A stretch of 64,000 bases of DNA from Rhodothermales bacterium (GCA_965214485.1 CBDCBW010000015.1:338000-401999), one strand, 5' to 3'. Shown: positions 41,013 to 56,970, counted from the first letter of the stretch. The notes: generated from the sequence alone by a model not told the origin. Program-made: numbers and translations.

Positions 41013-41039
41013 TAGCGACCCCACACCCCCCAATGCGTA

Positions 41040-42423: not shown

Positions 42424-42553
42424 CCGTATACCAAAGGGCCGCTCACCCACGCGGGGAAAACAGGATGATGGTCGGACGAAGCTGCGGAAGCGGTGGAGTT
42501 CGGACGAGGCAAGACCGTGTAGCCCTTCGTCGGCGTGCAGCGGCGGGTTAGGC
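42424..42553 (-). repeat. attC-like site A1
   Basis: Left box degenerate (GTATACC). Inner arms GGGCCGCTCACCC / GTGCAGCGGCGG. Right box GTTAGGC. Confidence 0.65.
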
Positions 42554-42561
42554 AGCCGTGG

Positions 42562-43179
42562 CTACCCACTCACGCCCTGGAACACTTTCAGCACCTCGCT
42601 CTCCGGCACCTGGTTGCTCCGTGGCAACAGGTCTTTGCCCGCGAGCGCCGCTGCCACGCGCGCTACCGACGCCCCATGCTGCCGCCCGCCTTCCAGGGCC
42701 TCGTCCTGGACTCCAACTGGCTCCATGCGCCGCCCGCCCGTCCGCGCGTGAGGCCCCCACCGCGAGCCGGTCGTCTCGCTCCCCGGCGACGACTTCGGAA
42801 ACGGAACCAAAATCATCCCGCACTCCGCCAGTGGGCCGAGCATGGCGAGTTGAGTCAGCTCGCTCCCGCTCCCAGCGTCGCCGTACCCGCCCCCGGTCGT
42901 GAACGCAGCTGCGACCTTCCCGACAAGCTCGTCCGTGAGCCAGAGGTGGTACACGGCGGCGTCGATGAACCGCTTGACGCGCCAATCGAGCATCCCCATG
43001 TGGACCGGCGAACCGAGGATGAGGGCGTCGCAAGCACGTACCTCTTTCTCTGTCGCCTCCTCGACGCCCCGCATTACGACCTCAGTACCGGAGACGGAAC
43101 CCGCGCCCTCACCGACGGCTTCGGCCAGCTTCTTCGTGTTCTCGAAGAGGGTGGTGTAGACGATCAGGACGTTTGCCAT
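42562..43179 (-). CDS. Flavodoxin-fold NAD(P)H-dependent oxidoreductase (WrbA-like); cassette 12
   Basis: 205 aa. MANVLIVYTTLFENTKKLAEAV...LILGSPVHMGMLDWRVKRFID is typical of the flavodoxin-like fold. Stop lies 8 nt from A1. Confidence 0.7.
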   Translation of the reverse strand: MANVLIVYTTLFENTKKLAEAVGEGAGSVSGTEVVMRGVEEATEKEVRACDALILGSPVHMGMLDWRVKRFIDAAVYHLWLTDELVGKVAAAFTTGGGYGDAGSGSELTQLAMLGPLAECGMILVPFPKSSPGSETTGSRWGPHARTGGRRMEPVGVQDEALEGGRQHGASVARVAAALAGKDLLPRSNQVPESEVLKVFQGVSG

Positions 43180-43235
43180 GTCGGTAGGGCCTCGTTTGGT
43201 TATGATACGGTGGAGTTGGCTACGCTGTCACGGGG

Positions 43236-43366
43236 CCGCCTAACAGATTGCCACTCAGCCGCGAAGGGCTGACGGCACGGTGGTAGAACGGAGCGAAAGT
43301 AGCGCCGACGCTCAGGCGAGCCGAGAACGCTGACGCCCTTCGTCGGCTTGCGGCGGCGGGTTATGC
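43236..43366 (-). repeat. attC-like site A2
   Basis: Plus-strand boxes GCCTAAC ... GTTATGC. Arms TGCCACTCAGCC / TGCGGCGGCGG. Confidence 0.75.
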
Positions 43367-43684
43367 CGCAACGATATACGAGCGGCCCGGACGTACCGAC
43401 GGCAAGAGCGCGTTCAACTTCGGTAGTAGCGGTTCGAGGTCTGCCAGGTCTGAACTCGGCGCTCGGACGACGATTACCGCGAGGTCGAGTGCTGCCACGT
43501 TCTGTTGGTACTGCAAGTTGGAGTCGAGCGTCACGAAGACGTCGAACTCTGCCGCTGCGGCTCGAAGCAACTCCCCGTTCTTCTTCCCGCTCCATCCTCG
43601 GTACTTCACCGTCACGACGTCGTGGGCTGCGTCGAAGCCTCGCCGGAGCCGCCAGTCGAGGTTCTCATCCAGGAGCACCCGCAT
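43361..43684 (-). CDS. DUF5615-type PIN-like toxin; cassette 11
   Basis: 107 aa (MRVLLDENLDWRLRRGF...). Paralog of 44856..45176. Its TAA stop lies inside the GCATAAC box of A2. Confidence 0.7.
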   Translation of the reverse strand: MRVLLDENLDWRLRRGFDAAHDVVTVKYRGWSGKKNGELLRAAAAEFDVFVTLDSNLQYQQNVAALDLAVIVVRAPSSDLADLEPLLPKLNALLPSVRPGRSYIVAA

Positions 43685-43702
43685 CAGGCAGGAGCACTCG
43701 CA

Positions 43703-43915
43703 TCAGGTGGTCGCGAGGACGGCGTCCTTCGCCAACGCCAGAAATGCAACCGCCTGCTCACGGCTGACGCTGGGAAACCCTTCTAAGAAGTAATCGAGCG
43801 GTCGGCCTGCCGCGAGATAGTCGAGGAGGTTCTGAACGGGGACGCGCGTGCCTTGAAAGACAGGCGTGCCTCCCAAGATGTCGGGGTCGGAATGGTAAAC
43901 TTGGTGCCTTTCCAT
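43703..43915 (-). CDS. DUF433-type antitoxin; cassette 11
   Basis: 70 aa from ATG 43915 (MERHQVYHSDPDILGGTPVFQGTRVPVQNLLDYL). The ILGG.PVF.GTRVP motif is typical of DUF433. Confidence 0.75.
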   Translation of the reverse strand: MERHQVYHSDPDILGGTPVFQGTRVPVQNLLDYLAAGRPLDYFLEGFPSVSREQAVAFLALAKDAVLATT

Positions 43916-44002
43916 CGGGTCTACGTGGCTGGCGGGTCTACGTGGCTGTTCGGAGAATCGAACGCCTTCTGCCACCTTTCCGATCCAGCACCGGCGCAGT
44001 TG

Positions 44003-44122
44003 CGGCATAACAGGGGGCCGCTCAGCCGCACAGCGCGGCGATTGAACGAGACAAAGTAGGTGGCAAGGTTCGGACGAGGCAAGACGGCGGAGCGCCGTGT
44101 CGGCCTGCAGCGGCGGTTATAC
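44003..44122 (-). repeat. attC-like site A3
   Basis: Boxes GCATAAC ... GTTATAC. Arms GGCCGCTCAGCC / CTGCAGCGGCG. Confidence 0.75.
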
Positions 44123-44130
44123 AGCCGGGG

Positions 44131-44724
44131 CTACATGCCGTCCTGATCCAGCCGGTACGCGAACACCCCGTTCATCTCACAGATGAAGGCGACGTACCGC
44201 TCGTCCGGCGAGAGCGTCAGGCTGTGACAGTTCTCAAACCCGCTCGTCCAGAGCGTCTCCGGTTCCGCGCCGGTCCGAGTTATCACGAACGCGGTGCTCA
44301 TGCCCTCCTGGTGTAGCTCGACGGAGGTACCCCCTTTGGTACGCATGGAGCGAGGGGCAAAGTTCGCGGCCTCCTGCCAGGCAGTGGCTTCGGGTGCTTC
44401 CGCGACAGACTCGCCCGACTGGAGGGCACCGAGCGGAAGATCACCCCGCCATGTCGCCCCGACAAGGGCAAGAGAGTCGAGGCGAACCGAATACCAAATC
44501 CCGGCTACGTTCGCAGCGAGCCGTGAGCCGTCTGGCGACCAGACCGGGAACTCGTCCACAGCTTGGGAGGGGACAATCAGCGCGGTGCTCGCTCCGAGGC
44601 GGGTGAGTTCAGCATCGAGGGATTGAAGAGTGTAGGAGGTGTCAGGCGGTGCATCAGCCTCCTTCTCTTGCGCAAAGGATGGGCTGGCAGCCAAGAGCAG
44701 TAGAGGGAGAACGAGTCTGTACAT
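44131..44724 (-). CDS. Secreted protein with PD40-like motifs; cassette 10
   Basis: 197 aa from ATG 44724 (MYRLVLPLLLLAASPSFAQ signal peptide). Motifs WSPDGSRLAA and LSPDERYVAF. The longer track ORF start would lie inside attC A4. Confidence 0.6.
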   Translation of the reverse strand: MYRLVLPLLLLAASPSFAQEKEADAPPDTSYTLQSLDAELTRLGASTALIVPSQAVDEFPVWSPDGSRLAANVAGIWYSVRLDSLALVGATWRGDLPLGALQSGESVAEAPEATAWQEAANFAPRSMRTKGGTSVELHQEGMSTAFVITRTGAEPETLWTSGFENCHSLTLSPDERYVAFICEMNGVFAYRLDQDGM

Positions 44725-44730
44725 TGGGAG

Positions 44731-44861
44731 GCTGTATAGCAGAGGGCTGCTCATCCGCCTAGGGCAAGCAGCACGAGGGTGGAACGAGGCAGTGTAAGCG
44801 GCGCAGGTTGCACGAGGCAAGACCGTGCAGCCCTTCGTCCGCCTGCAGCGGCGGGTTATAA
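44731..44861 (-). repeat. attC-like site A4
   Basis: Left box degenerate (GTATAGC), right box GTTATAA. Arms GGGCTGCTCATCC / CTGCAGCGGCGG. Confidence 0.65.
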
Positions 44862-45176
44862 TGCCACGCGGATTACGCGCCCCGGAGCCGCCTCCTGCAA
44901 CGCTGCGTTGATCGACGCCACCAACGGGAGCAGGTCATCGATGTCGTTGCTCACGGCCGAGAGCACGATCAGACACAGCTCGATCCCCGTCAGGTTCTGC
45001 TGATACTCGATCCCCCGGTCTATCGTCAGCAGCACGTCGAACTCCAAGGCCGCCAGCCGGAGCAGTGGGCCGTTCTTGATGCCGCCCCACCCACGCTCGG
45101 GCACCGTCAGCGCCTCCGCCTCCAGCGAGCACTTCAGCTTGCGCGGCAGGTTCTCGTCGAGCAGGACCCGGATCAC
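44856..45176 (-). CDS. DUF5615-type PIN-like toxin; cassette 9
   Basis: 106 aa. GTG start overlaps the antitoxin stop (GTGA). Sequence IRVLLDENLPRKLK. Its TAA stop lies inside the TTATAAC box of A4. Confidence 0.7.
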   Translation of the reverse strand: MIRVLLDENLPRKLKCSLEAEALTVPERGWGGIKNGPLLRLAALEFDVLLTIDRGIEYQQNLTGIELCLIVLSAVSNDIDDLLPLVASINAALQEAAPGRVIRVAL

Positions 45177-45385
45177 GCCTCAGCCACCAACTCCTGCTCA
45201 GCCAACTCGAGCAAGGCTTCGGCCTGCTCCCGGCTGACCGTGGGGAAATCGTCACGGAAGTCCTCGATCCGCTTCCCCTTGCGGAGGTAGACGAGCAGCG
45301 TGTCAATAGGCACGCGGGTGCCGGTGAAGACCGGCGTGCCGCCGAGGATTTCGGGATCGGAGTGGTAAACGTCAGTGCGCTTCAT
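45173..45385 (-). CDS. DUF433-type antitoxin; cassette 9
   Basis: 70 aa (MKRTDVYHSDPEILGGTPVFTGTRVPIDTLLVYL). Confidence 0.75.
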   Translation of the reverse strand: MKRTDVYHSDPEILGGTPVFTGTRVPIDTLLVYLRKGKRIEDFRDDFPTVSREQAEALLELAEQELVAEA

Positions 45386-45465
45386 CGCTTCGGCTCATAT
45401 CGTTTCAGGTTGCTCGCCTGACTTCAAACGCCCCTGCTCCCGTTCGGATTCAGCGCGTCGGGAGT

Positions 45466-45598
45466 GGCCGTATAACAGATGGCCGCTCACCCGCGCAGGG
45501 CAAGCAGCACGATGGTCGGACGAAGCTACGGAAACGCAGACGTTCGGACGAGCCGAAAACGCTCGCGCCCTGCGTCGGCGTGCAGCGGCGGGTTATGT
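45466..45598 (-). repeat. attC-like site A5
   Basis: Boxes GTATAAC ... GTTATGT. Arms GGCCGCTCACCC / GTGCAGCGGCGG. The IS481-like element is inserted about 17 nt beyond its right box. Confidence 0.8.
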
Positions 45599-45680
45599 GC
45601 ACGGGCGGTACAGACCGGGCTGATGGTTTACACAATAGTCCAGGCACATGGTTTACACGGACACCCTTCCGTGAGTTGCC

Positions 45681-46878
45681 ATGCCCTTCCAGACTACCGA
45701 CCCGCCTATGGAGCGCGCCCGCCTCGTCGCCGCTCACCTCGACGGCCTCTACTCTGTCGCCGAACTCGCCGACCGCTTCTCGGTCTCCCGGCCCACCGTT
45801 TCTCGGTCTCCCGGCCCACCGTTTCTCGGTCTCCCGGCCCACCGTCTACAAGTGGATCGAGCGATACGCTGAGGGTGGCACCGAGGCGCTCCTCGACCGT
45901 AGCCGAGCCCGACATACCCAGCACGCTAAGACCGACCCGGAGGCGGAGCGCCTGCTCATTGAGGCCCGGCGGGCGCACCCCACCTGGGGCGCACGCAAGC
46001 TGCTGCCCTACCTCGCCCGGCGGCACGAGGGCGTCCGCTGGCCTGCGCCGTCTACGGCAGCGGCCATCCTCCAGCGCCACGGGCTGACGAAGACGCGCCG
46101 CAAGCGCCGGGTGCCGAAGCACCCCGGCTCCGCCCCGCTGGTGACGACGGCCCCCAACGAGGTCTGGACGGCCGACTTCAAAGGCCAGTTCAAGACCCGC
46201 GACGGGGTGTACTGCTACCCGCTGACGGTCTGCGACGCCCACTCGCGCTTTGTGCTCGGCTGCACCGGCCTGCCATCGGTCAAGCAGAAGGGCGCGAAGG
46301 ATCAGTTCGAGCGCCTGTTCCAGAAGTACGGCCTGCCCGAGGCGATCCGTAGCGACAACGGCGTACCGTTCGCCACGCAGGCGCTCTGCGGCCTGAGTCG
46401 GCTGAACGTGTGGGGGCTCAAGCTCGGAATCGGGCACGACCGGATCGCACCAGGGCAGCCTCAACAGAACGGACGCCACGAGCGGATGCACAAGACCCTG
46501 AAGGCCGAGACGGCACGACCACCCGAGCGTGAGATGGCACGGCAGCAGGTGCGCTTCGACGGCTGGCGCACGGAGTTCAACGACGAGCGCCCGCACGAGG
46601 CCCTCAGCTATGAGACTCCCGCTTCACTCTACGTGGCCTCGCCCCGCGCAATGCCCGACGTGCTCCCGAAGCCGGAGTACCCCGGCCACTTCGAGGTGCG
46701 CTGGCTCTCGAAGAGCGGCAACATCAAGTGGAAGCGGCAGCAGCTCTTCGTCAGTCAGGCGCTGGCGCACGAGTGGGTCGGGCTCGAGGAAGTCGCCGAC
46801 GGGGTGTGGAGCTTGTACTTCTACGACCGGCTGTTGGCGCGGCTTGACGAGCGCTCGGGGCTAAGGCTTCGGCCGTGA
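45681..46878 (+). pseudogene. IS481-family transposase (HTH + rve integrase core), frameshifted by a 23-bp tandem triplication
   Basis: MPFQTTDPPMERARLVAAHLDGLYSVAELADRFSVSRPTV (frame of 45681) continues as YKWIERYAEGGTEALLDRSR... only in the +1 frame after 45844. The core contains WTADF...D...RSDNGVPF...E. Confidence 0.8.
45776..45844 (+). repeat. Perfect 23-bp tandem repeat x3 (TTCTCGGTCTCCCGGCCCACCGT) inside the transposase gene
   Basis: Read directly at 45776-45798, 45799-45821 and 45822-45844. Two extra units add 46 bp, which shifts the frame by +1. Confidence 0.95.
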
Positions 46879-46935
46879 GGGGTGTAAACGATGTGGTCAG
46901 ACAAAACTGTAAAGGAACTGACCGGCTCCTACAGG

Positions 46936-47769
46936 TCAGACTTCGTACAGATCGTGGAGGAGTTGTATGGTGTCCCGTGCGAACTCTCGGGCCTCAGACT
47001 TCGATACAGTTCGGTTCCCGTGTACGATGCGGCTCAGGTCAGCGTAGAGATCGCTGATCGGCCCCCGGAATTTCTTGAAGTGATTGCTCCTGTCCAACAG
47101 CGCCCGGAGGTCGGCAGGTTGCATCTGATAATCCTCAGGAATGCGGAAACTCCGGTTCTGCTCTCGCGCTTTTCGCTCGTAGTACGACTTGGTGATGCCG
47201 TAATTCTGGTGCTCAGGGTCGAAGAAGCCTTCGAGTTGACACAGGTGGCGCAGCGCAATCTCAATCACCGTTCGGCAAAGGACGCAAACGGCGAGGTACT
47301 GCTCGAAGGCGTAGCACTGCCGCATCTCCTGCAAGAAGGAGCCGAACTCGGTGGGGGTGTCGTCAGCGCGAGCTACAAGCGCGCCCACTTCCAACATGCC
47401 GGAGACGTATTCGTAGTGGCTGTACCACGGGAAGAAGTGCTCCTCCGCAAGCTCGTCCAACTCGTCGAAGGTGTGCTCGTCATCGAAGAGGTCTGAGAGT
47501 GGAGTGTCCGAGACTACCTCTTCCAGAGGGAGCTTCTTGCCGAGCACGATCCTCTGGACGGTCGCTCGCACATCCCGCGACGCATCATCGGGCAGGAGCG
47601 CAGCCGGTGAATCGAGGAAGTGCTGTTTGATCGAGCGCTTGATCTGACCGTGCTCCTCGACCAGCGCACCGAGCGGCTTGAAGTCCTTCTTGTCGAACGC
47701 CAGAGACAGTGCGTCCGGGAACTCCTGCTCAATCTGCCGGAGGCGTTCGATCTGCTCAGCGAAGTCCAT
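46936..47769 (-). CDS. Hypothetical protein with a DUF4145/HEPN-like C-terminal region; cassette 8
   Basis: 277 aa. The helical C-terminus (CRTVIEIALRHLC ... LYADLSRIVHGNRTVSKSEAREF) is reminiscent of DUF4145/Abi-type HEPN. This is a recall-level assignment only. Confidence 0.5.
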   Translation of the reverse strand: MDFAEQIERLRQIEQEFPDALSLAFDKKDFKPLGALVEEHGQIKRSIKQHFLDSPAALLPDDASRDVRATVQRIVLGKKLPLEEVVSDTPLSDLFDDEHTFDELDELAEEHFFPWYSHYEYVSGMLEVGALVARADDTPTEFGSFLQEMRQCYAFEQYLAVCVLCRTVIEIALRHLCQLEGFFDPEHQNYGITKSYYERKAREQNRSFRIPEDYQMQPADLRALLDRSNHFKKFRGPISDLYADLSRIVHGNRTVSKSEAREFARDTIQLLHDLYEV

Positions 47770-47791
47770 CAGTGGGCACGGTGGGAAGGAA

Positions 47792-47914
47792 GCATAACAG
47801 GTTGCGCTTCAGCCGCGCCGGAACGCGACCGTGGAGTGGAAAGCTACGATGAGTGCTAGCACACCGACGGCAAAACCGCACAGCCCGGCGTCGGTCTGCA
47901 AGCGCGGGTTATAC
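47792..47914 (-). repeat. attC-like site A6 (divergent arms)
   Basis: Boxes GCATAAC ... GTTATAC. Arms GTTGCGCTTCAGCC / GGTCTGCAAGCGCGG still pair, so the structure is conserved rather than the sequence. Confidence 0.7.
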
Positions 47915-48472
47915 CGCCGGGCTTGGCAGTTTTTGTATAGCAAGACCTCGTCCTGATACCCAATCAACGTATTCCCCCCATCCCCCCACTTGAAATACAA
48001 CCTCCACTTGGTCCATTCTCGATAGGTAATTAAGCACGTTCCGATGTTCCGGCTTGTCAGCGAAGCGGATAGACATCCTCGTCACGGACCAAGGAATTCG
48101 AGAGGAATCCTGGTGGTAGATAGCAGATAGCTTCACCTCACCAGCAAAGGTGCTGATGTCATCAACAACCATCTTCGCGGCGGTAACAGGATTAGAAAGG
48201 TCGCAATTATCGCCTGTCAGCGGGTAATCATTCGCCCGAATTGAAGTCATACTGGAATGCCTCTCAGATATGTCGAGTAGTTCTTGCAGCAGTTCAGGAG
48301 CAGGTCGAAAATCATTGCCAGTGGAGATCGTCAAGGCAACCAACCGATCCTTCTCCCTTTGTTGAATGTCCTTCAGTCGTTTGGTTTCGGAGCGCGCCTT
48401 CCGAGTCGCTAACGCTTGCAGATAAAAGGCTAACGCTATACTGGCAACTAAAATAGTTAGGAAAAAGAGCAT
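47909..48472 (-). CDS. Membrane-anchored orphan protein; cassette 7
   Basis: 187 aa. N-terminal TM helix MLFFLTILVASIALAFYLQAL. Lower-GC sequence. Its TAA stop lies inside the GTATAAC box of A6. Confidence 0.6.
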   Translation of the reverse strand: MLFFLTILVASIALAFYLQALATRKARSETKRLKDIQQREKDRLVALTISTGNDFRPAPELLQELLDISERHSSMTSIRANDYPLTGDNCDLSNPVTAAKMVVDDISTFAGEVKLSAIYHQDSSRIPWSVTRMSIRFADKPEHRNVLNYLSRMDQVEVVFQVGGWGEYVDWVSGRGLAIQKLPSPAV

Positions 48473-48487
48473 AGATCAGGACGCGAG

Positions 48488-48619
48488 GCGGTATAACAGA
48501 CGGCCGCTCACCCACGCAGGGCAAGCAGCACAATGGTTGGACGGGGCAACGTAGACACCGATGCTCGGACGAGCCCAGAACGCTTGCGCCCTGCGTCGGC
48601 GTGCAGCGGCGGGTTATAC
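48488..48619 (-). repeat. attC-like site A7
   Basis: Boxes GTATAAC ... GTTATAC. Arms GGCCGCTCACCC / GTGCAGCGGCGG. A second stem is CGCAGGGCAAGC / GCTTGCGCCCTGCG. Confidence 0.8.
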
Positions 48620-48674
48620 AGAATCATTCTTGGTACCTCTGTTCAGGCTAAATAATATTTGATATTTAAGGCTT

Positions 48675-49727
48675 CTAAAATAGCGTAGTCTGCTCAACTG
48701 ACACTTCTGTTTCCGTTGCGCCGTCACCCGAAATAGCCGGGTCAAGCTCATCAAAGCGGAACCGGGAGCTTTCGAGGTACTCTTCCTCAAGCTCGAAGGC
48801 GAGGTAACGGCGGCCCATTTCCTGCGCCACCTCGCCGGTCGTGTTGCTCCCGGCGAAGGGATCAAGCACGAGATTACCTTCTTCAGTAGTAAGGCCGATG
48901 ATGAACTCGGGGAGCGCCTTCGGGAAGCGGGCAGGATGCCGCTTGGCTCCGGTCTCGCGGCACCGCCGCTGATAGCGGTCGTTGCTGGACGTGTTCGACG
49001 CCGCTACGACATTGACGGGGACGGGTTCACCGATCTCGTGCTCAAAGGCGTCATCCTCTAGGATGTTTGGCGGAATCGCGCCGCCGTTGTTCTTTCCGAA
49101 CTTGTCTGAGATGTCGTGTTCGCTCGGGCGGAGCTTCGGCGTGTAGCCGTTCTTCATCAGGTGCTTCTGCGCCTTGCTGTAAGGCTTCAGCACACTCCGG
49201 TTCGTCACTTTCCCGTCCTTCTCATCAACGACGGCAGAGGGGCGAAGCCACCAAACGGTGTTGACTGCATCCTTGACACGGATGCGGCGGACGGTCACCC
49301 ACTCGGCAGGCGTCGGCAGCTTGGCCGGATTGTACCAGTAGAGTTCTTGCGCGAGGAAGAAACCGAACTCCCCGCCTTCCTCGACTGGCTTGCACAGCCG
49401 AAGCAGAAACTCGTAATGGTAGAGGCTGCGATACGGTAGCCCTTTGATCCACGTACCGCCTAAGTCAATGACGAGCGAACCGTCGGGTTTAAGGATGCGC
49501 TTGAACTGCTCTGCAAAGGGTCTAAACCACTCGACGTACTTCTCAGACGTGACGTTGCCGTAGCCTTTCTGTCGGAGTAGCGCAAACGGCGGCGACGTGC
49601 AGATGAGGTCCACGGACTCATCGCCAAGCTGCTTCATCAGTTCCACGCTGTCGCCGAGGTAGGCCGCGCCAGCTTCCGTGGTGTAGTAAGGCTGGGCGTC
49701 GCCGAGGGTTGGGAGCGGCATGGGCAC
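48675..49727 (-). CDS. Beta-class DNA methyltransferase (N4-cytosine or N6-adenine); cassette 6
   Basis: 350 aa. Motif IV TSPPF lies near the N-terminus and motif I DPFAGSNTTG near the C-terminus. The first ATG is at 49721; the track start at 49727 is GTG. Confidence 0.85.
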   Translation of the reverse strand: MPMPLPTLGDAQPYYTTEAGAAYLGDSVELMKQLGDESVDLICTSPPFALLRQKGYGNVTSEKYVEWFRPFAEQFKRILKPDGSLVIDLGGTWIKGLPYRSLYHYEFLLRLCKPVEEGGEFGFFLAQELYWYNPAKLPTPAEWVTVRRIRVKDAVNTVWWLRPSAVVDEKDGKVTNRSVLKPYSKAQKHLMKNGYTPKLRPSEHDISDKFGKNNGGAIPPNILEDDAFEHEIGEPVPVNVVAASNTSSNDRYQRRCRETGAKRHPARFPKALPEFIIGLTTEEGNLVLDPFAGSNTTGEVAQEMGRRYLAFELEEEYLESSRFRFDELDPAISGDGATETEVSVEQTTLF

Positions 49728-49756
49728 CTCTTTAGATTGATTGCGCGATGGAAAGG

Positions 49757-49882
49757 CTTGACAACGTCAAGCGGGGAGCGCTACGTTAACGGCAATTTAT
49801 GCGCTCGCGCCAAAGGGTAGGGCATCTACCTTCGGGCCGAGCGCGCTGAACCATACTACGACAACGCCTTGACTAAGTCAAG
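49757..49882. promoter_or_regulatory. Divergent R-M control region with two copies of the palindrome CTTGAC-n3-GTCAAG
   Basis: CTTGACAACGTCAAG at 49757-49771 and CTTGACTAAGTCAAG at 49868-49882. The second copy overlaps the putative TTG start of the HTH gene. Confidence 0.6.
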
Positions 49883-50111
49883 CAGTTTTTCGCCAGAGGA
49901 CTTCAAGCCGGACGATTGGGTTTCGCAATCGGAGGCAGCGGACATCCGCGGCGTCTCTCGACAGGCGATCCACCAACTCGTGCAGAAGGGCCGGTTCCGC
50001 ACCTACGCTGTGGCCGGACGGACGCTCGTGCTACGGGAGGATGTGGTACAGTACGAACCGGACAAGGGAGGGCGTCCGCCCACCTCGGACGAGACCGAAC
50101 AAGGGGCATAG
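49869..50111 (+). CDS. Small HTH DNA-binding protein (excisionase/MerR-like HTH; candidate controller of the R-M unit); cassette 6
   Basis: 80 aa. WVSQSEAADIRGVSRQAIHQLVQKGRF reads as an HTH. The only in-frame start is TTG at 49869. Confidence 0.55.
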   Translation: MTKSSSFSPEDFKPDDWVSQSEAADIRGVSRQAIHQLVQKGRFRTYAVAGRTLVLREDVVQYEPDKGGRPPTSDETEQGA

Positions 50112-50112
50112 C

Positions 50113-51567
50113 GTGGCATCTGCAAAGAAGGAGAGCCAAATCCCCGTCGGCACGGGCTTCAGCCCCGATCTCGTGAGCCTGCCAGACTACGTTCGCGCCG
50201 CCGTTCGGCACAGCGGGGATTTGGACGCGCTGGAAGAAGCGCTCAACACACCGCCCGTCTGGATCGGCAAGAAGCTGAGGACGACGCGGCGCACCCGCCG
50301 CCACCCGATGGAAGCGGGGGCGCAGTACGGACTGCTCACGCCGGGGAGCTACGAAGCAACCGACCTCACGCGAAAGCTCGCCCGGCTGAGCGAGGACGAT
50401 TTGTACCAAGCGTTTGCGCGGCACATCGTTCTGAACGTCGGTGGTCTCCGTGTCGTGGAGGGAGCGCAGGAGATGCATCTTGACGGGCGGAAGGTCACCG
50501 GCGACTCGCTCGCGCAGTACCTCTCGGATCAGGGCTTCCGGGTCAGCGTCCACAACACCGCGATCAACACGATGCGGATGTGGCTGGCGAAAGCAAAGCT
50601 GTTCCCCGAAAGCGGGCGTGGGGCAGGAGCATGGCGACCGGACCCGGCGGTAAAGGAGCAACTTGTGGGGATGGACGACGATGCTATCGCGGCGCTGGCA
50701 GCATTGACGCCCGAACAGGTCGCGTTTGCTAAAACGCTCGCTCGCCTCGACCCGGACGACTGGACACCGGCGGCAGAGGTACGGGACCTTGCCGAAGCCG
50801 CTGAGGGCGTGCGGATTGGTCGCGGCTCGTTGCCGAACGAAGTGCTCCGTCCATTGGAGGCAGCGGGGCTGATCGAGTACCGAACGGGCGGCACCAGCAG
50901 CGGGAAGACTTCGGAGTTGAGAACGACGGAGGCGTTTCGGGCCGAGGTGCTGGAGCCGTTTCTGGAGCGGACGCTGAAAGACCTCGACCCGGCACTGACG
51001 GCCTACTACCGCACCCGGCCCGCCGACATTTACACTGCTCTCGGCTCGAAGGACAAGCACGAAAAGGGGCAGGCGCTTGAAGCGTTCGCCGTGATGGTGA
51101 TGCGTCTGCTCGGACTCCGGTTCGTCGGCTGGCGGCGGCGGGCCGAGGAAACCGGATACAGCGAAGTGGACGTGCTGATGGCCGGGCTGTTTGGGGCGGT
51201 GCCTACGACGTGGCAGGTGCAGTGCAAAAACACGCCGTCGGGACAGGTCCGCTTGGAGGATGTAGCGAAGGAAGTCGGGCTGATCCCGCTTATGCGGGCA
51301 ACGCACATCCTCGTGCTGGCAAACGCGCCGTTCACCCGCGATGCCCGGCGCTACGCCGACGCGATCATGCAGAACTCGTCGGTTACGGTTTTTCTGCTGG
51401 ACCGGACGGACTTCGAAGCAATTCGGGAGAGTCCCGCTAACCTGGGTCGCATTCTTCAGGCACAGGCCGAGCGCATCCGCGATCTCAAGATGGCAACGCC
51501 GGTATGGCGAGAAGGCGATGCACGCGGGGGACCGGATCAACCCTCGCTCGGTCTACCGCTGGGCTGA
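50113..51567 (+). CDS. Restriction endonuclease-like protein with a C-terminal Mrr-type PD-(D/E)xK domain; cassette 6
   Basis: Likely GTG start at 50113, just after the HTH gene stop. The C-terminus (GYSEVDVLMAG...WQVQCKNTPSGQV) fits the Mrr_cat D...(E/Q)xK pattern. Its stop abuts attC A8. Confidence 0.65.
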   Translation: MASAKKESQIPVGTGFSPDLVSLPDYVRAAVRHSGDLDALEEALNTPPVWIGKKLRTTRRTRRHPMEAGAQYGLLTPGSYEATDLTRKLARLSEDDLYQAFARHIVLNVGGLRVVEGAQEMHLDGRKVTGDSLAQYLSDQGFRVSVHNTAINTMRMWLAKAKLFPESGRGAGAWRPDPAVKEQLVGMDDDAIAALAALTPEQVAFAKTLARLDPDDWTPAAEVRDLAEAAEGVRIGRGSLPNEVLRPLEAAGLIEYRTGGTSSGKTSELRTTEAFRAEVLEPFLERTLKDLDPALTAYYRTRPADIYTALGSKDKHEKGQALEAFAVMVMRLLGLRFVGWRRRAEETGYSEVDVLMAGLFGAVPTTWQVQCKNTPSGQVRLEDVAKEVGLIPLMRATHILVLANAPFTRDARRYADAIMQNSSVTVFLLDRTDFEAIRESPANLGRILQAQAERIRDLKMATPVWREGDARGGPDQPSLGLPLG

Positions 51568-51568
51568 T

Positions 51569-51695
51569 TCTGTATAACAGAGGGCCGCTCACCCGCAGAG
51601 GGCCGCGCGGCGGTGGGACGAGGCAACGTAGACGCCGAGGTTCGGACGAGGCAAGACCGTGCAGCCCTTCGTCGGCGTGCAGCGGCGGGTTAGGC
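51569..51695 (-). repeat. attC-like site A8
   Basis: Boxes GTATAAC ... GTTAGGC. Arms GGGCCGCTCACCC / GTGCAGCGGCGG. Confidence 0.8.
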
Positions 51696-51713
51696 AGAAT
51701 GCGGGCAGTGGAG

Positions 51714-53066
51714 TTAGTTCAGAGTTGCCCTCAGCGAAGGGAAGAAGGCTGAAACCGGATTGTCTACAGAGTCCGGATCGTCAAGAGCTTTCCGGACCTG
51801 GCTGGCGATCTCAGACTTGTACACCTCAAGCCTTGGCACCAGTGCAAAGATGCTCGAGGTATCAATCTGAATCGTCCTCACTTGATTGAGGTCGAACGGA
51901 ATGTGGTCTGCTGCCCGCATGATCTGGACAGTCGGCAGACGACAGGCGTGCCTCAAGGCCAACTCGTAGAATACGTTGGGGTTATGATAAGACAGATCTG
52001 CGATGACTAACTTTGACTTGAGGATGTACTCGATGATCTGGGCCGTGATGATACCAGGCTCCGCGATATAGTCCGCACGCACCAGCTTCAGTCCAAACGG
52101 CTCCAAGGCGGGCTCGATAATAGAGCCCATGAAGAGATCTGAGTGCTGACGCTGCTCCGATTCCTCATCACCTATCGGCGTGATGTAGAAACAAATATGA
52201 TCGAAGTCAGCGCTTGAACTGGCGGGTTTGGCGCGACCTGTCGCAACTACTCCGTCAGGGGCCGGGCGTCCACCCCGGCTTGGGGCACGAACGGCGCGCT
52301 CCAGTCCTTCAAGGGCGTGGTCGAACGTCAAGAGGCGTTCAGCACCTGAAAGAGTTCTGAGAAGGCCCAGATACCGAGCGTTGACGATGAATATGTCAAC
52401 GCACTCGTTCGATCTCTGCTCTGACATACCGGTCTCACGTAACGCGTCGCGCAAAAGAGAACTCGACGGCATTCGTGAGCCTGCAAATGTCTCATAAAGC
52501 AACTTGAACGGCTCGACACCCATTATCCCAAGCTCAATCCGAGCCTTAGTCCGCTCGTGCTCGGACACGTCGTCGCTGGTCGCCTTGTCACCTTCGGGAG
52601 TCAACTGAAGATGCTCCGCTTTATGACTCCCCTTCACAAGACCGTACTTGCTCGCGTTCGTGAGAAGCTGCCGACTCTGACTACTCTCAGGAGACTTGCC
52701 GAACTCATCGAACAAGGTGAGACGACGGACCTGGTTGCTTCCTGCAGTCTCTTGGATGAACTGCGCAAAGCTCACGACCTCCTCAAAGGAGGCATTAGGG
52801 TAGGGTAGCGGCGTTCGCTGTCTGGGCTTCTTTGCGGCAGGCTTCTTCTTATCAGCAGGCTTCTTCTTCCGTGTCGTCTTCTTCCCAGCATTGGCCTTTG
52901 GCTTCCGGCTGGCGGGTTTCTTAGCCGTAGCCTTTTGAGCCGACTCCGCCTTCTTCGCTGGCTCCGCTGCCTCAGTTGACTGTTCGCCCTCCGACATGGG
53001 CTCGGCGTCAGAGGACTTCGACTCTGATTCCCCGAAGAGGTTGGTGCCATTCGCTCCTACTTCCAT
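51714..53066 (-). CDS. Three-part protein: Lys/Pro/Ala-rich basic tail, two winged-helix-like repeats, and a C-terminal nucleoside 2-deoxyribosyltransferase/TIR-like domain; cassette 5
   Basis: 450 aa. Basic tail KKPASRKPKANAGKKTTRKKKPADKKKPAAKKPRQR. C-terminus CFYITPIGDEESEQ...VRADYI...LVIADLSYHNPNVFYELALRHA matches the NDT-like pattern (recall-level). Confidence 0.6.
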   Translation of the reverse strand: MEVGANGTNLFGESESKSSDAEPMSEGEQSTEAAEPAKKAESAQKATAKKPASRKPKANAGKKTTRKKKPADKKKPAAKKPRQRTPLPYPNASFEEVVSFAQFIQETAGSNQVRRLTLFDEFGKSPESSQSRQLLTNASKYGLVKGSHKAEHLQLTPEGDKATSDDVSEHERTKARIELGIMGVEPFKLLYETFAGSRMPSSSLLRDALRETGMSEQRSNECVDIFIVNARYLGLLRTLSGAERLLTFDHALEGLERAVRAPSRGGRPAPDGVVATGRAKPASSSADFDHICFYITPIGDEESEQRQHSDLFMGSIIEPALEPFGLKLVRADYIAEPGIITAQIIEYILKSKLVIADLSYHNPNVFYELALRHACRLPTVQIMRAADHIPFDLNQVRTIQIDTSSIFALVPRLEVYKSEIASQVRKALDDPDSVDNPVSAFFPSLRATLN

Positions 53067-53131
53067 TGGACTAACCGGTCTGTTTCAAGAGCCTGAACAA
53101 GTTCGCGTAGAAGATACTCGGTCGGGGCATT

Positions 53132-53261
53132 CTGCCTAACAGAGGGCCGCTCACCCGCAGAGGGCCGCGACCAGGATGGACTCGAAGATATGACGGCGTG
53201 GGCGCTCGACCGCAGGCAAGACGACCGAGGCCCTATGTCGGCGTGCAGCGGCGGGTTAGCA
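53132..53261 (-). repeat. attC-like site A9
   Basis: Boxes GCCTAAC ... GTTAGCA. Arms GGGCCGCTCACCC / GTGCAGCGGCGG. Confidence 0.8.
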
Positions 53262-53628
53262 CGCAGGCGTTGAGGGCACACCGTTGGAACTGCGAAGCTT
53301 ACCCCCCTCCTACCTACGACGCGGGTCCGCCCGCCTCGGTGAGACTCTGGACACGGCTGCGTAGCGGCGGTGACCGCACTCGCTCTGGATTGGGTGCCCG
53401 GCTGTGGGGGCCGAGCAGACGGAGGAACTGCGACGCCGAGCTCGCACGGCTGGCAGAACCTCCCGCGACGCTGGTAGGCACCCACGAGCACACGCTCACC
53501 CGAGGCCGCCTCTGCCGGGCCGTGGAGGCGAGCACGGGCCACTCGGTCCACAAGAACACCGAGGCTGGCAAGGGCGCGAGTGGTTCCGCCTTGCAAGGAA
53601 ACGGACTCCGCCCCACGACGAGGGCCTG

Positions 53629-53759
53629 CGTGCTAACAGAGGGCCGCTCACCCGCGCAGGGCAAACAGCACAATGGTCGAACGAAGCTACGGAAGCGCAG
53701 GCGTTCGGACGAGCCGAGAACGCTCACGCCCTGCGTCGGCGTGCAGCGGCGGGTTAGCC
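53629..53759 (-). repeat. attC-like site A10
   Basis: Boxes TGCTAAC ... GTTAGCC. Arms GGGCCGCTCACCC / GTGCAGCGGCGG. Confidence 0.8.
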
Positions 53760-54569
53760 GGACCCGTGGGGCACGGCAGTTGGGGACAGCATCTCTTGAA
53801 CCTCCTCAATCGTGTACGGTGGAGACTTCCGGTGGATTACGGCGTGGCAGTTCGGACAGACTGGACGGAGGTCGTCTACCGGATCTACCTCGTACCGCTC
53901 GCCCAACTCTGACACCGGGCGGAGGTGATGGACGTGGATGAAGCCCTCGGTGGCGGCACCGTAGGCACGGGCGAAGTCGAACCCGCAGACGATGCACGCA
54001 ACGCCGTAGTAGGCAAGGCACCGCCGCCGTGCCTCCGGGTTGCGCTCGTACACGTTGAGGCTGACGGCGCGCGGGGTGCCCTCGTACAGCGGGCGCGGCT
54101 CAGCGCTCCGGTTAGAATCCGGCGGGGAGGCCGAGCCGATGACGGAACCCCACTCCCGTTCCAGCGCTTCCGCAACGTGAGGCGGGATCGAGGTACCCGA
54201 CGCCTGGGTGTTCCAGTAGACGTCAGCGAACTCGGGCGCGTCCAGCCGCTCGCGCGGGAGGATCGGATCAGTCTCGGGATCTTGCAGCGCGTCGAACTCC
54301 ACTTCGACGAACCAGCCTGGCGTGTCGCGCTCCGGGTCCCAATGATCGTCTTGGTACGACGGCGTTGTGACGGAGCCGCTGGCGATGATCCCGCGTGGTT
54401 CGAGACCCTGGCGGAGCAAGAAAACGCGGTCGCCCTGCTCGATCCGTTTCGTGTTTCCGCAACTCCAACGACGGACCAATCGCCCGCGCTCGGCAACCTC
54501 GTTTGCGTCGGCGGCGAGGCCGTCCCACTTCCACCGCTTCGGGTTCCACGTCAGGAGATACGTCGCCAT
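53754..54569 (-). CDS. PUA-like (EVE/ASCH-type) domain fused to an HNH nuclease (candidate modification-dependent restriction enzyme); cassette 3
   Basis: 271 aa. N-terminus YLLTWNPKRWKW...GDRVFLLRQG..GIIASG. C-terminal HNH CIVCGFDF...FIHVHHLRPV...CPNCHAVIH. Its TAA stop lies inside the GGCTAAC box of A10. Confidence 0.75.
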   Translation of the reverse strand: MATYLLTWNPKRWKWDGLAADANEVAERGRLVRRWSCGNTKRIEQGDRVFLLRQGLEPRGIIASGSVTTPSYQDDHWDPERDTPGWFVEVEFDALQDPETDPILPRERLDAPEFADVYWNTQASGTSIPPHVAEALEREWGSVIGSASPPDSNRSAEPRPLYEGTPRAVSLNVYERNPEARRRCLAYYGVACIVCGFDFARAYGAATEGFIHVHHLRPVSELGERYEVDPVDDLRPVCPNCHAVIHRKSPPYTIEEVQEMLSPTAVPHGSG

Positions 54570-54590
54570 AGCACAGCGATTCGGAGGGTA

Positions 54591-54720
54591 CGGCTAACAG
54601 TTGACCGCTCAGCCGCGTGGGGCAAACAGCACGGAAGTTGAACGAAGCGAAGGTAGCGCCGACGCCAGAACGAGCCGAGAACGCTCACGCCTCACGTCGG
54701 CCTGCAGCGGTGGGTTATGT
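54591..54720 (-). repeat. attC-like site A11
   Basis: Boxes GGCTAAC ... GTTATGT. Arms GACCGCTCAGCC / CTGCAGCGGTGG. Confidence 0.75.
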
Positions 54721-54745
54721 GGCGTACAGTAGATGTCCACTCATT

Positions 54746-55441
54746 CTAATGTCCGAACCGATACGAACCTAGGTCGATCAGGTCTAACTCCTCGATTCGA
54801 ATCGCCATCGCCTCGTAGGAGACGCCGAAGAGTTCAGCAATTGGCTTCACGGGGTTCCCGGCGAACATTCCAGCCTTTGCCAAGCGAAGAGAGAGTGGCC
54901 GCATATCGGGACTTGTAGCTAGCAGAGGTCCCAAATCTTTAATCCCGAGGGAGAATGCCGAGTCGTTGGATACGATAAACCGATCAGATCCGAAGATCGC
55001 TCGGAATGCCTCTCTCATCACGGACTCGGGCATCAAGAAGTATGCGGCGAACTTGTCGGCTTCATACTCCACTTGTGGGCGGTGGCCCCGAATCAGCGAG
55101 CCATCAAGGCCACGATCTCTGAACTGTTTGTCTGCTTTGTGGAGAATCGCATGACCAAGCTCATGCGCCGCCGTGAAAGCCTGGACCACTGGTACGAACT
55201 GCTCTGATACGGCAGCGTATCGCTTCGGTTTGTCGATGAACCCAGCCACCTCGGTTACGTCGCCACCATCGATGATCTGTCCCAAGAATGGAGCGCGCTC
55301 AAAAGTGTAGCCGAAAGCATGAAATGCGGAGGGCGGATCAAGAACATCGATGACGCCTCTGTCGGTACCGTCTGTCCATATGTCTGACCTATTTCTCCAA
55401 AGGTCGTTCTGGACGTTTTTAGCGATGGAGTGAACGACCAC
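54746..55441 (-). CDS. ImmA/IrrE-family zinc metallopeptidase; cassette 2
   Basis: 231 aa. HEXXH motif AAHELGHAILH followed by EYEADKFAAYFLMP. The GTG start is embedded in the IS200-like end hairpin, so the true N-terminus is uncertain. Confidence 0.75.
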   Translation of the reverse strand: MVVHSIAKNVQNDLWRNRSDIWTDGTDRGVIDVLDPPSAFHAFGYTFERAPFLGQIIDGGDVTEVAGFIDKPKRYAAVSEQFVPVVQAFTAAHELGHAILHKADKQFRDRGLDGSLIRGHRPQVEYEADKFAAYFLMPESVMREAFRAIFGSDRFIVSNDSAFSLGIKDLGPLLATSPDMRPLSLRLAKAGMFAGNPVKPIAELFGVSYEAMAIRIEELDLIDLGSYRFGH

Positions 55442-56020
55442 CCCCAGAGGGGGTGGCTTCTGTATTCCTCACGGCGACCCCTGAAAGGGGATCGCGCGCT
55501 CACGAGAACAGATCGTAGTTGGCCTGCTGCCGCTCCTGTTTCTTCTCCTCCTGCTCCTGATACTGAACGTAGCGCCGGATCAGATCCTCGTTCAAACCCA
55601 CCGTGTTCACAAAGTACCCTCGCGACCAGAAATGATTGCCCCAATACGGCTTCTTCCGCAGACGGGGGTAGCTCTTGAACAGCTTGATCGCCAGCTTCCC
55701 CTTCAGAAAGCCCATGAACTGCGAGACCGCCAGCTTCGGTGGGATCGAGCAGAGCAGGTGGATGTGGTCGGGCTGCACGCTTAGCTCCATCACCTCGACC
55801 TGCTTCCACGCACACAGCACCCGGATGTCGTGCTCGACGGCCTCTTTGATAGCCCCTTCGAGCACACGGTAGCGGTACTTCGGCGTCCAGACGATGTGGT
55901 AGTTGCACTGGTAGACCGTGTGCGTGAGCTTTCGATACTTCGCGTTGCGCTCTGCCATGCTGCCAGTTTACGGCATAGCCGAACACACATCACCACCGTC
56001 AAAGACGGTGGGTTGCTACG
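55440..56020 (-). mobile_element. IS200/IS605-family element (tnpA only; ends approximate) inside cassette 2
   Basis: The Y1 transposase gene is flanked by subterminal hairpins: CCACCGTCAAAGACGGTGG at 55994-56012, and GACCCCTGAAAGGGGATC and CCACCCCCAGAGGGGGTGG at 55437-55492. Confidence 0.7.
55500..55958 (-). CDS. tnpA: IS200/IS605-family Y1 transposase TnpA
   Basis: 152 aa. YHIVWTPKYRYRVL, the HUH motif (DHIHLL) and the catalytic-Tyr region WSRGYFVNTVG. Confidence 0.9.
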   Translation of the reverse strand: MAERNAKYRKLTHTVYQCNYHIVWTPKYRYRVLEGAIKEAVEHDIRVLCAWKQVEVMELSVQPDHIHLLCSIPPKLAVSQFMGFLKGKLAIKLFKSYPRLRKKPYWGNHFWSRGYFVNTVGLNEDLIRRYVQYQEQEEKKQERQQANYDLFS

Positions 56021-56769
56021 CTAAACTCAATCTCCGAGTCAGTATACTTCGAGTCGATTAGACTCTTGTCTCGAATGAGGTTGATGTCCAATCCGAAGCC
56101 GTCATTCGAAGCTTGTGCGCCAGACCTCAACTCCAAGACTCTGGTTTGCAGTTCAGTGCCGATGAGGCGAGCGCGTTCCTCCAACTTTTCCGCGCGAGCT
56201 AGCAACTCCACGATCTCGCTCTCCCCGTTGAAGCTCTTGAGGTTGAGGTACACGATCGAAATAGCGCCGGTCGCTCCAGACAGGGCGGAGTCGATAGCCA
56301 CCTCCGAGTCGCCTCGGGCAGCCTTAAACCCAATGTCGAATACGGTGACGGCGTGTTCGGCGAGCGCCAAACAGCTCTCAGCTATTTCAAGAGGAATTTC
56401 ACTGGCAACATGCAACTCATCCAAAGCCTGCTTCCCATACCTCCATCTCTGGGCGGGATCGGTCTCGGCGTTTCTTGCAAGTCGCGCCTTGATGACCTTG
56501 TCAAACTGAACTGAGTCCTCGTCGAACGCTTCCCACAGCTTGGGCTCGATGTCATTGGTGATGGACTCCTCGATACTGTTAAGCTCGGCTACGGCTTCTT
56601 CATGTTCATGGCCGCCACGTCGCTTCGAAAGATCGATGACGGTTTTCGTCAGAGCGCACGAGATCAGGCCGAGCAGCGCGGCTGCGCTACCCGAACCGGG
56701 CTTGTGCCCGCCAGCGCCGAACTTCCTCAGAAGCTCGTCTAGGGGAAGCTTTGCTAGATCGACTGCCAT
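55999..56769 (-). CDS. Cyclodeaminase/cyclohydrolase (FTCD C-terminal) family protein; cassette 2. Its C-terminus may be altered by the IS200 insertion.
   Basis: 256 aa. N-terminus LPLDELLRKFGAGGHKPGSGSAAALLGLISCALTKTVIDLS matches the FTCD_C pattern (PGGGSAAAL). The last 7 codons run into the IS end. Confidence 0.6.
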   Translation of the reverse strand: MAVDLAKLPLDELLRKFGAGGHKPGSGSAAALLGLISCALTKTVIDLSKRRGGHEHEEAVAELNSIEESITNDIEPKLWEAFDEDSVQFDKVIKARLARNAETDPAQRWRYGKQALDELHVASEIPLEIAESCLALAEHAVTVFDIGFKAARGDSEVAIDSALSGATGAISIVYLNLKSFNGESEIVELLARAEKLEERARLIGTELQTRVLELRSGAQASNDGFGLDINLIRDKSLIDSKYTDSEIEFSVATHRL

Positions 56770-56837
56770 GCCTCTCTGATCTGTGAACCTCGGGAGCTAA
56801 CGCACGCATCCGTAGCAGGTTGCCTTGTGCTCCCGCT

Positions 56838-56970
56838 AGCCACATAACAGACGGCCGCTCAACCGCGAAGGGCAAACGGCATGATGGTGAATCAGAGCGC
56901 AGGATACGCCGACGGTCGGACAACGCGAAAACGCTGACGCCCTTCGTCGGCTTGCAGCGGCGGGTTATGT
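56838..56970 (-). repeat. attC-like site A12
   Basis: Boxes ACATAAC ... GTTATGT. Arms GGCCGCTCAACC / TTGCAGCGGCGG. Confidence 0.8.

Follow-up and report, generated by a model that had tools for sequence, protein, structure and literature searches.

The window considered here, a stretch of 64,000 nucleotides (CBDCBW010000015.1:338000-401999), contains an integron gene cassette with three genes that have the composition of a Type II restriction-modification (R-M) system: a DNA methyltransferase (MTase), a small helix-turn-helix (HTH) protein and a putative restriction endonuclease. The MTase gene lies on the minus strand (48675-49721), and the two others are read divergently from it on the plus strand: the HTH gene (49869-50111) encodes 80 amino acids from a TTG start, and the nuclease gene (50113-51567) encodes 484 amino acids from a GTG that lies one base past the HTH stop. 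Two palindromes of the form CTTGAC-N3-GTCAAG complete the picture: op1 (49757-49771, CTTGACAACGTCAAG) lies in the MTase leader, and op2 (49868-49882, CTTGACTAAGTCAAG) overlaps the start codon of the HTH gene. A first-pass annotation, made from the sequence alone, had listed these sequence features, and each was found where it had been placed.

The MTase is a protein of 348 amino acids in which the motif TSPPF precedes DPFAGSNTTG, that is, motif IV is N-terminal to motif I, the order of the beta class. It thus carries both the catalytic and the S-adenosylmethionine motifs of a Type II modification enzyme, and it matches Pfam N6_N4_Mtase (2.4e-39) and PADLOC MTase_II (5e-108). Its alignment with the crystallised M.PvuII (PDB 1BOO; E-value 6e-91) covers residues 12-335. 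Full-length homology and an SPP(F/Y) motif are the marks of the M.PvuII-like beta-class N4-cytosine MTases, and both are present. The first-pass annotation had offered N4-cytosine methylation as a weak inference: given the end-to-end match to M.PvuII it is a strong one, and the target is probably CAGCTG or something close. An open reading frame list gives a start at GTG 49727 (48675-49727); the ATG at 49721, ATGCCGCT, has an AAGAGG Shine-Dalgarno sequence before it and is common to the related loci L001, L082 and L088. The exact 348-amino-acid product is already on record.

The nuclease combines an N-terminal part of about 310 amino acids, helical and winged-helix in character, with a C-terminal Mrr-type PD-(D/E)xK domain (nucleotides ~51067-51414). 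The Mrr-type ending was proposed at first sight, and a profile search gives it the support of a nuclease fold: residues 319-434 match Pfam Mrr_cat at 7e-8, with 33 bits against a curated cut-off of 21 bits. Residues E323, D353 and Q370-C-K372 are invariant across 24 homologues, which are 460-490 amino acids long and have the common N-terminal start MxxxKESxIPVGT. An AlphaFold (AF2) model, with a mean predicted local distance difference test (pLDDT) of 82.8, resembles MspJI, AspBHI and EcoT38I in the nuclease domain only, the template modelling (TM) score of the whole protein being about 0.2; the N-terminal region finds fold matches among PadR, ScpB and ORC-type winged helices. Searches of NCBIfam and PADLOC gave no match, and a profile of the family matched no solved structure among the PDB sequences. 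Plasmid records hold two distant matches, labelled only 'restriction endonuclease'.

Relatives of the nuclease were collected at 396 loci in species-representative genomes, and neighbourhoods were counted for the best 80 of the 396. In 74 of these 80, a PvuII-like MTase, 42-87% identical to that of the window, adjoins the nuclease relative. The two genes occur in all possible arrangements, namely M-then-R tandem, R-then-M tandem, convergent and divergent, and in many bacterial phyla as well as in archaea. Since adjacency persists across all four gene orders, nuclease and MTase are best predicted to be a genuine R-M pair, with a separate nuclease, bearing its own catalytic motif, linked to the modification enzyme as in Type II systems.

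The cassette itself is delimited by attC sites. The window has a G+C content of about 69%, and within a stretch of lower content, at ~40.7-57.0 kb, 11 attC-like repeats of about 125 bp follow one another in one orientation (40746-56967). Each ends in GCGTGCAGCGGCGGGTTA, for which 0.14 occurrences are expected by chance, and the alignment of the 11 copies reveals the layout of integron attC sites: xxTAAC, GCCGCTCA, a variable loop, TGCAGCGGC and GTTAxxx. The copies fold into long imperfect hairpins. The genes between repeats are nearly all on the minus strand, start just past one repeat and stop just before the next, so that the minus strand is the cassette strand. The beta-class MTase had been assigned to that strand, and rightly so: the cassette genes around it all share the minus strand, and an attC comes after each of them. 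Its gene thus shares the orientation of transcription of the array.

The R-M cassette spans 3081 bp on the minus strand (48497-51577), its first letters being the TT of the upstream core G|TTATAC and its last the G of the core in its own attC. Its own attC (48491-48620, minus strand) has the cores GTATAAC (48491-48497) and GTTATAC (48614-48620), the inverse core and core of an integron cassette (RYYYAAC and GTTRRRY), and forms a DNA hairpin of -35.6 kcal/mol (z-score -3.8) at the 3' end of the cassette. The attC of the preceding cassette (51572-51697, minus strand) supplies the 5' boundary through its GTATAAC core (51572-51578). These boundaries can be read independently from locus L098, a copy from another sample and sequencing run that is 88% identical to the window locus, WIN, over 3.0 kb: homology begins inside the attC of the cassette, at 48588, and stops exactly past the core 51572-51578, which fixes the recombination boundary. 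Consequently, the first-pass annotation was right to see a cassette, but its extent, 48620-51568, was slightly too narrow, because the cassette's own attC belongs to it. Its proposal of a complete R-M unit within one cassette is upheld by the Pfam matches, the attC array, the R-M linkage and the breakpoint in L098, and so is the remark that the sequence is richer in AT than its host: the G+C content of the cassette is 61.6%, against 69.1% in the flanking host DNA.

No integron integrase gene was found beside the array, in its flanks within the 64-kb window, nor was an attached intI/attI found in the window, although intI may lie elsewhere in the genome; as far as the window goes, the attC sites form a cluster with no integrase. 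It is flanked by a gene for an ABC-F ATPase (37507-40713, plus strand) and one for a membrane protein (57715-59283, minus strand). Nor does the module depend on cassettes. In L001, a Rhodothermaceae genome, its neighbours are housekeeping genes, an amidohydrolase gene on one side and hutU on the other, with no attC around it and no recombinase; in L083, L084 and L088 it is beside conjugation, partition or replication genes, and in L082 and L087 it adjoins other defence genes. Since the same three genes occur elsewhere without attC sites, the three-gene module is autonomous, and it became a cassette secondarily.

It is the small protein that sets this module apart. TTG 49869 had been named as the only possible start of its gene, and it is indeed the sole in-frame ATG, GTG or TTG past the 49818 stop from which a complete HTH is translated. 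The protein matches Pfam HTH_17 (2.6e-6), with no match to HTH_3 or HTH_31, and TIGR01764, the 'excisionase family'. Its AF2 model (pLDDT 81) has a beta-alpha-alpha-beta-beta topology, and the folds closest to it are those of Pukovnik Xis, BldC, a DNA-binding protein of phage P2 (4lhf) and RdfS, with a root-mean-square deviation of 1.2-1.7 Å over about 45 residues to proteins of this type; N-terminal domains of the MerR family are matched too. Together, the HTH_17 match and the winged-helix topology of the model place the protein outside the family of classical controller (C) proteins, which are all-helical, Xre-type proteins of about 80 amino acids. The position of its gene is that of a controller, immediately upstream of the nuclease gene and, with a gap of 1 nucleotide, apparently co-expressed with it; the operators are not, since in place of an adjacent pair of C-boxes upstream of the controller gene we find one dyad per promoter, 111 bp apart and of another sequence. 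The suggestion of a controller-type autoregulatory circuit thus holds for the layout and fails for the type of protein, which is an Xis-, BldC- or MerR-like winged helix.

This layout, with the MTase gene divergent from an HTH gene that is followed by the nuclease gene at a distance of -1 to +3 nucleotides, recurs in L001, L013, L082-L088 and L098, and the conserved tight junction points to translational coupling of HTH protein and nuclease. A search for homologues of the HTH protein gave 990 matches, and in the family alignment the recognition-helix region RGVSRQAI and a C-terminal G-R-P are invariant. The G-R-P stands just past the folded HTH domain and resembles the core of an AT-hook. The first residues (MTKSSSF here, LSTNF in distant relatives) seem dictated by the DNA of the operator and of the adjacent A-tract, not by the function of the protein.

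Four distant loci, with HTH proteins about 50% identical, were also examined: Salinibacter ruber (L091), Methylobacterium dankookense and two metagenomes. In all four, the HTH gene is divergent from a PvuII-like MTase gene (46-50% identical, with SPPF or SPPY), and the gene downstream of it is a different one. In three of them (L092, L093, L094) its product has ~220-233 amino acids, and these products can be aligned with one another; in S. ruber it is a 208-amino-acid protein that does not align clearly with them, and McrBC-like genes come next. The proteins of ~220-233 amino acids have no Pfam match and display a D...(V/I)QVK and ETQ pattern: from this pattern, they look like another PD-(D/E)xK nuclease. 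With another gene downstream at the distant loci, regulator and MTase appear as the conserved core, and the nuclease as the exchangeable part.

We now consider the palindromes, which the first-pass annotation had read as putative operators. The two copies of CTTGAC-N3-GTCAAG are exact, and there is no other in the 64 kb; at one mismatch, 0.16 would be expected by chance. In comparative data op2 behaves as an operator would, its arms being kept while the N3 and the flanks vary: it is present at the HTH start in 13 of the 13 independent related loci at which it was judged, with 0-2 mismatches in the arms and a variable N3, and the intergenic region around it is otherwise diverged. (L081, a sole, short locus from the metagenome scan with an HTH alignment, had no recognisable GTCAA anchor in the window searched and was left unused.) In L013, L083 and L087 the start codon of the HTH gene is downstream of op2, and the palindrome is non-coding; its conservation is therefore at the level of DNA and does not reflect a coding constraint.

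A promoter scan gives op2 a second role. The predicted MTase promoter, P_M (49853-49881, minus strand), consists of TTGACT (49881-49876), a spacer of 17 nucleotides and TAGTAT (49858-49853): op2 thus provides its -35 hexamer and the proximal part of its spacer. In the alignment of P_M, which comprises 12 loci, the TTGAC of the right arm of op2, read on the MTase strand, is invariant (12/12) and is followed at exactly 17 nucleotides by a -10-like hexamer TAnnnT, with TA at positions 1-2 in 11 of the 12 loci and T at position 6 in 11 of the 12. A stricter, uniform scan recovers P_M in 10 of them. The other arm of op2 lies in the spacer of P_M, a place where the sequence would be free to vary unless a protein binds it; this arm is an exact inverted repeat in 8 of the 12 loci, and in 3 others it differs by one mismatch. 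Just upstream of the -35 hexamer is an A-tract, GAAAAACTG (49884-49892, minus strand), whose plus strand encodes codons 6-8 of the HTH protein; an A-rich tract occurs at that position in all 12 loci, and it has the position of an UP element, a role it may play. At all 12 loci, then, and at the level of sequence, a putative site at the start of the regulator's own open reading frame covers the -35 hexamer of the predicted divergent MTase promoter, the arrangement known from Kpn2I. The reading of op2 as an autoregulatory site, which rested on the overlap with the start codon, was sound as far as the overlap goes; the role that is universal among the loci is that of -35 hexamer and operator of P_M, and not autoregulation alone, while op1 is an addition of a sub-clade.

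Nine close loci carry the full module, WIN, L001, L013, L082, L083, L084, L087, L088 and L098, and op1 is found in WIN, L001, L082, L088 and L098 only, with 0-1 mismatch; it is absent from L013, L083, L084 and L087. A mechanical scan predicts that op1 holds the -35 hexamer of P_CR, the promoter of the HTH and nuclease genes (49758-49787, plus strand; TTGACA, a spacer of 18 nucleotides, TACGTT). The pattern TTGACN-18-TA(C/A)(G/A)TT is common to L001, L082, L088 and L098, with the left arm of op1 as -35. The two promoters are thus predicted to face each other: transcription would start near 49794 on the plus strand and near 49846 on the minus strand, and each operator would lie at about +75 on the opposite transcript.

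Between the two predicted starts lies an inverted repeat of about 55 nucleotides that can form a hairpin (49796-49850; -31.4 kcal/mol, z-score -3.6), exactly where the predicted face-to-face transcripts overlap. L098 has a hairpin of equal strength between op1 and op2 (-31.7 kcal/mol, z-score -3.05), with the same loop size of 5 nucleotides and a largely different stem, so that the structure is conserved and the sequence is not; in L001, L082 and L088 the corresponding hairpin is much weaker. A shared 5' stabiliser is one possible role, an antisense 'kissing' element another. Two other possibilities were considered and set aside. One is that the palindromes act as RNA hairpins or attenuators, a scan having flagged op2 with its T-run as terminator-like; but these are hairpins of little strength (-7.5 to -8.8 kcal/mol), which for the most part do not stand out against shuffled sequences, and the T-run fits an A-tract upstream of the -35 of P_M, so that this is not retained as the main reading. 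The other, a leaderless HTH mRNA, would require a -10/-35 pair placed to start at TTG 49869, where there is none.

Gene identities, R-M linkage, cassette boundaries and the conservation of operator and promoter elements were computed directly, and the proposal that we build on them is the following: the cassette is probably an autonomous Type II R-M module, captured by an integron, whose HTH protein acts through op2 and, in the sub-clade, op1. The MTase would make N4-methylcytosine and protect the host DNA, and the nuclease would read DNA through its N-terminal winged-helix region and cut unmodified DNA with its Mrr-type domain. On entry into a cell, a strong P_M would fire and the MTase would build up. 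The HTH protein and the nuclease would rise slowly, transcription from P_CR having to pass P_M; that the nuclease should be low or late follows from the weaker P_CR, with its 18-nucleotide spacer and TACGTT, from a TTG start without Shine-Dalgarno sequence, and from translational coupling to the HTH gene. Two copies of the HTH protein would then bind the dyad TTGAC-N3-GTCAA. At op2, they would occlude the -35 of P_M, limiting the MTase once the system is established, and, being at about +75 on the HTH/nuclease transcript and at the start of their own open reading frame, they would form a roadblock to elongation, a negative autoregulation. In the sub-clade, the protein at op1 would shut P_CR, whose -35 it covers, and would also stand at about +75 in the MTase leader, in a mirror image of op2: each promoter would have one operator on its -35 and another in its path. 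The proposal draws on the match between the arrangement of op2 and that of C.Kpn2I, as shown experimentally (PMC6237814), and by this analogy a Kpn2I-like logic, repression of P_M with a roadblock on the regulator transcript, seems likely.

Several points weigh against this proposal. Binding, promoter activity, methylation and cleavage are predicted from sequence alone, and the sign of regulation, the transcription starts and the methylation target are likewise what we infer. Among the structures that the HTH model resembles are BldC and excisionase-type proteins, which are usually described on direct repeats, head-to-tail; given this habit of the fold, and with no evident dimerisation element in the protein, binding to an inverted repeat is not guaranteed. 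Part of the conservation of op2 would be expected without any regulator, since its proximal arm is itself the -35 hexamer, and the symmetric two-operator model holds for the sub-clade only, since 4 of the 9 close loci have no op1. The host is probably Rhodothermales/Bacteroidota-like, and the promoter consensus used may not be its own. The closest structural relatives of the nuclease domain, MspJI and AspBHI, are modification-dependent enzymes. Finally, the presumed target CAGCTG is found 3 times in the window for 12.5 expected, but several other palindromes are depleted more, which makes this figure uninformative about the target: under a maximal-order Markov model, some palindromes of 6 bp are very strongly avoided window-wide, with GGCGCC observed 2 times for 57.6 expected, GCATGC 1 for 9.8 and CCATGG 1 for 9.3. 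This avoidance suggests a long history with several restriction systems.

A different sign of regulation might be envisaged, in which the HTH protein activates P_CR in the manner of classical C proteins, low occupancy of op1 turning the nuclease on and higher concentrations repressing it. The sub-optimal spacer and -10 hexamer of P_CR would suit an activated promoter, and classical C proteins do activate from sites beside or overlapping the -35, according to PMC2175313 and PMC2504287. Yet op1 extends over the -35 and on through the first half of the spacer, a repressor's geometry; it is missing from the four close loci named above, whereas op2 on P_M is universal; and a single dyad per promoter leaves no pair of C-boxes, one distal and activating, the other proximal and repressing. 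We consider activation unlikely. It is also improbable, in our view, that the palindromes are nothing but promoter elements, TTGAC -35 hexamers on both strands held in place in part by coding constraint, with the HTH protein acting elsewhere. One arm of each palindrome is indeed a -35 hexamer with a properly spaced -10, and the palindrome and the first HTH codons share sequence in WIN, L001 and L084. What this fails to predict is the near-perfect second arm of op2 in a spacer that requires no sequence, the persistence of the palindrome where it is non-coding, and the TTGACT on the plus strand of op2, which has no usable -10; moreover, the palindrome strictly accompanies the HTH gene, and, in the gene layouts compared, was not found at loci of the same R-M family that lack this gene.

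The Mrr_cat match and the resemblance to MspJI and AspBHI raise the question of whether the nuclease is itself modification-dependent, a Type IV or Mrr/MspJI-like enzyme aimed at foreign methylation and paired with an epigenetic MTase. Such enzymes would join an Mrr-type catalytic domain, which is present, to a domain that reads modified bases, with no cognate MTase; here the resemblance is confined to the catalytic domain, the N-terminal winged helices are not the recognition domain of MspJI, and a cognate-looking MTase is nearly always adjacent. Linkage to one MTase family despite shuffled gene order is the signature of a cognate pair, and expression of the nuclease is tied to the putative regulator of that same MTase, which leaves this reading with a low probability. 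As for the HTH protein being an excisionase or recombination directionality factor, with the palindromes as recombination or architectural sites for movement of the module, its HTH_17 and TIGR01764 matches and its likeness to a phage Xis would agree, but no integrase travels with the module, L001 has no recombinase, the attC sites account for mobility in the window, and the palindromes are at promoters inside the module and not at its ends: we judge it very improbable. The proposal of a controller acting through op2 and op1 is thus the one that we retain.

Other cassettes of the array deserve mention. The R-M cassette is the largest without an insertion sequence, the other large intervals between attC sites being due to insertions of such elements. 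Just upstream of it on the cassette strand, a gene at 51714-53066 (minus strand) encodes a 450-amino-acid protein whose N-terminal third is rich in lysine and which matches nothing in Pfam; transcripts of this gene would be antisense where they enter the nuclease gene, and would approach the MTase gene in the sense direction. The product of a neighbouring cassette (53754-54569, minus strand) is a fusion of an EVE domain and an HNH nuclease; by its appearance a Type IV-like, modification-dependent restriction enzyme, it shares the array with an N4-cytosine MTase. According to Pfam, one cassette holds an IrrE/ImmA-type Peptidase_M78 protein (54746-55441, minus strand) and another an rve-type insertion-sequence transposase (55500-55958, minus strand). 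Two further open reading frames resemble, by translation alone, IS200-type and IS5-type transposases (45580-46878 and 41469-42251, both on the plus strand).

Among known systems, PvuII resembles the module in its MTase and its gene order. There too a small regulator gene, with the nuclease gene after it, diverges from the MTase gene, and M.PvuII is a full-length homologue of the window MTase. R.PvuII, on the other hand, is a small PD-(D/E)xK enzyme of about 160 amino acids, unrelated to the 484-amino-acid Mrr_cat nuclease. The regulators differ as well, Xre-type and helical in PvuII, HTH_17 and Xis/MerR-like winged-helix here, and so do the operators, two C-boxes that precede the C gene in PvuII, TTGAC-N3-GTCAA over the MTase -35 and the regulator start codon here. 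In PvuII the nuclease is co-expressed with the regulator (PMC2175313), as is predicted here.

The closest known mechanism is that of Kpn2I, where the controller C.Kpn2I binds at the start of its own open reading frame, blocks the contact of sigma with the -35 of a strong divergent MTase promoter, and halts the RNA polymerase that transcribes its own gene (PMC6237814). The position of the site, its overlap with the -35 of P_M and the predicted outcome are alike. However, C.Kpn2I belongs to the XRE family, and in its motif an A/T tract is flanked by a 3-nucleotide inverted repeat; the nuclease of Kpn2I is expressed from a separate constitutive promoter, while here the nuclease appears translationally coupled to the regulator; and the sub-clade has a second dyad on the regulator's own promoter. 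In Esp1396I, one C protein controls the nuclease and MTase promoters via separate operators of different affinity, but it is a classical Xre-type protein with other operators, and the abstract on it describes no face-to-face promoters that share operators (PMC3488213). RptR is a small, non-classical repressor of an R-M promoter, genetically linked to R-M systems (PMC12255303); being all-helical, acting on 6-bp TAGCTA direct repeats over the -10, and belonging to Type I systems of Gammaproteobacteria, it is unrelated to the HTH protein of the window.

A role in regulating transcription is known for some proteins of the Xis/MerR fold, P2 Cox and BldC for example. Those that share the predicted fold (phage Xis, BldC, 4lhf, RdfS) are none of them described as R-M controllers; the site here is an inverted repeat, and the HTH family has its invariant C-terminal G-R-P. 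Our literature search found no paper that joins controller protein, restriction-modification and excisionase, nor a description of an R-M controller of the HTH_17 fold, titles and abstracts that name both HTH_17 and restriction-modification appearing unrelated to R-M controllers; nor did it find a TTGAC-N3-GTCAA operator fused to an MTase -35. In sedentary chromosomal integrons, restriction systems of Types II and IV are common among defence cassettes, some with their own promoter (10.1101/2024.07.02.601686); the array studied here differs in having no integrase within the window and a high-GC, probably Rhodothermales/Bacteroidota-like host, and its cassette in having three genes on both strands around an internal bidirectional control region. 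What is already known, then, is the presence of R-M systems in integron cassettes, M.PvuII-like MTases, Mrr-type nuclease domains, and the control logic of Kpn2I and Esp1396I.

It is tempting to conjecture, and we do so tentatively, with somewhat less than even confidence, that the small HTH_17 proteins are an unrecognised, widespread class of R-M controllers, associated with M.PvuII-like N4-cytosine MTases and with interchangeable nucleases, and acting on a single dyad that is both the -35 of P_M and the start of their own open reading frame. One sub-clade would have duplicated the operator into a symmetric switch of face-to-face promoters, whose overlapping leaders hold a structurally conserved hairpin and possibly a layer of antisense RNA. 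The 15-bp operator is directly testable, two promoters are predicted, and nature supplies the variants: one operator or two, and two different nucleases, of which the one in the window belongs to a family that is widespread yet uncharacterised. The cassette also indicates that an integron is able to capture intact a defence unit of several genes, transcribed in both directions and predicted to regulate itself. Whether an incoming restriction system kills the cell that receives it depends on controller proteins, and those that have been studied well are, to our knowledge, all of a single family, the Xre type. In this module an unrelated fold seems to have taken on that task, with an operator design that mirrors the roadblock of Kpn2I: this would be a case of convergent regulatory design.

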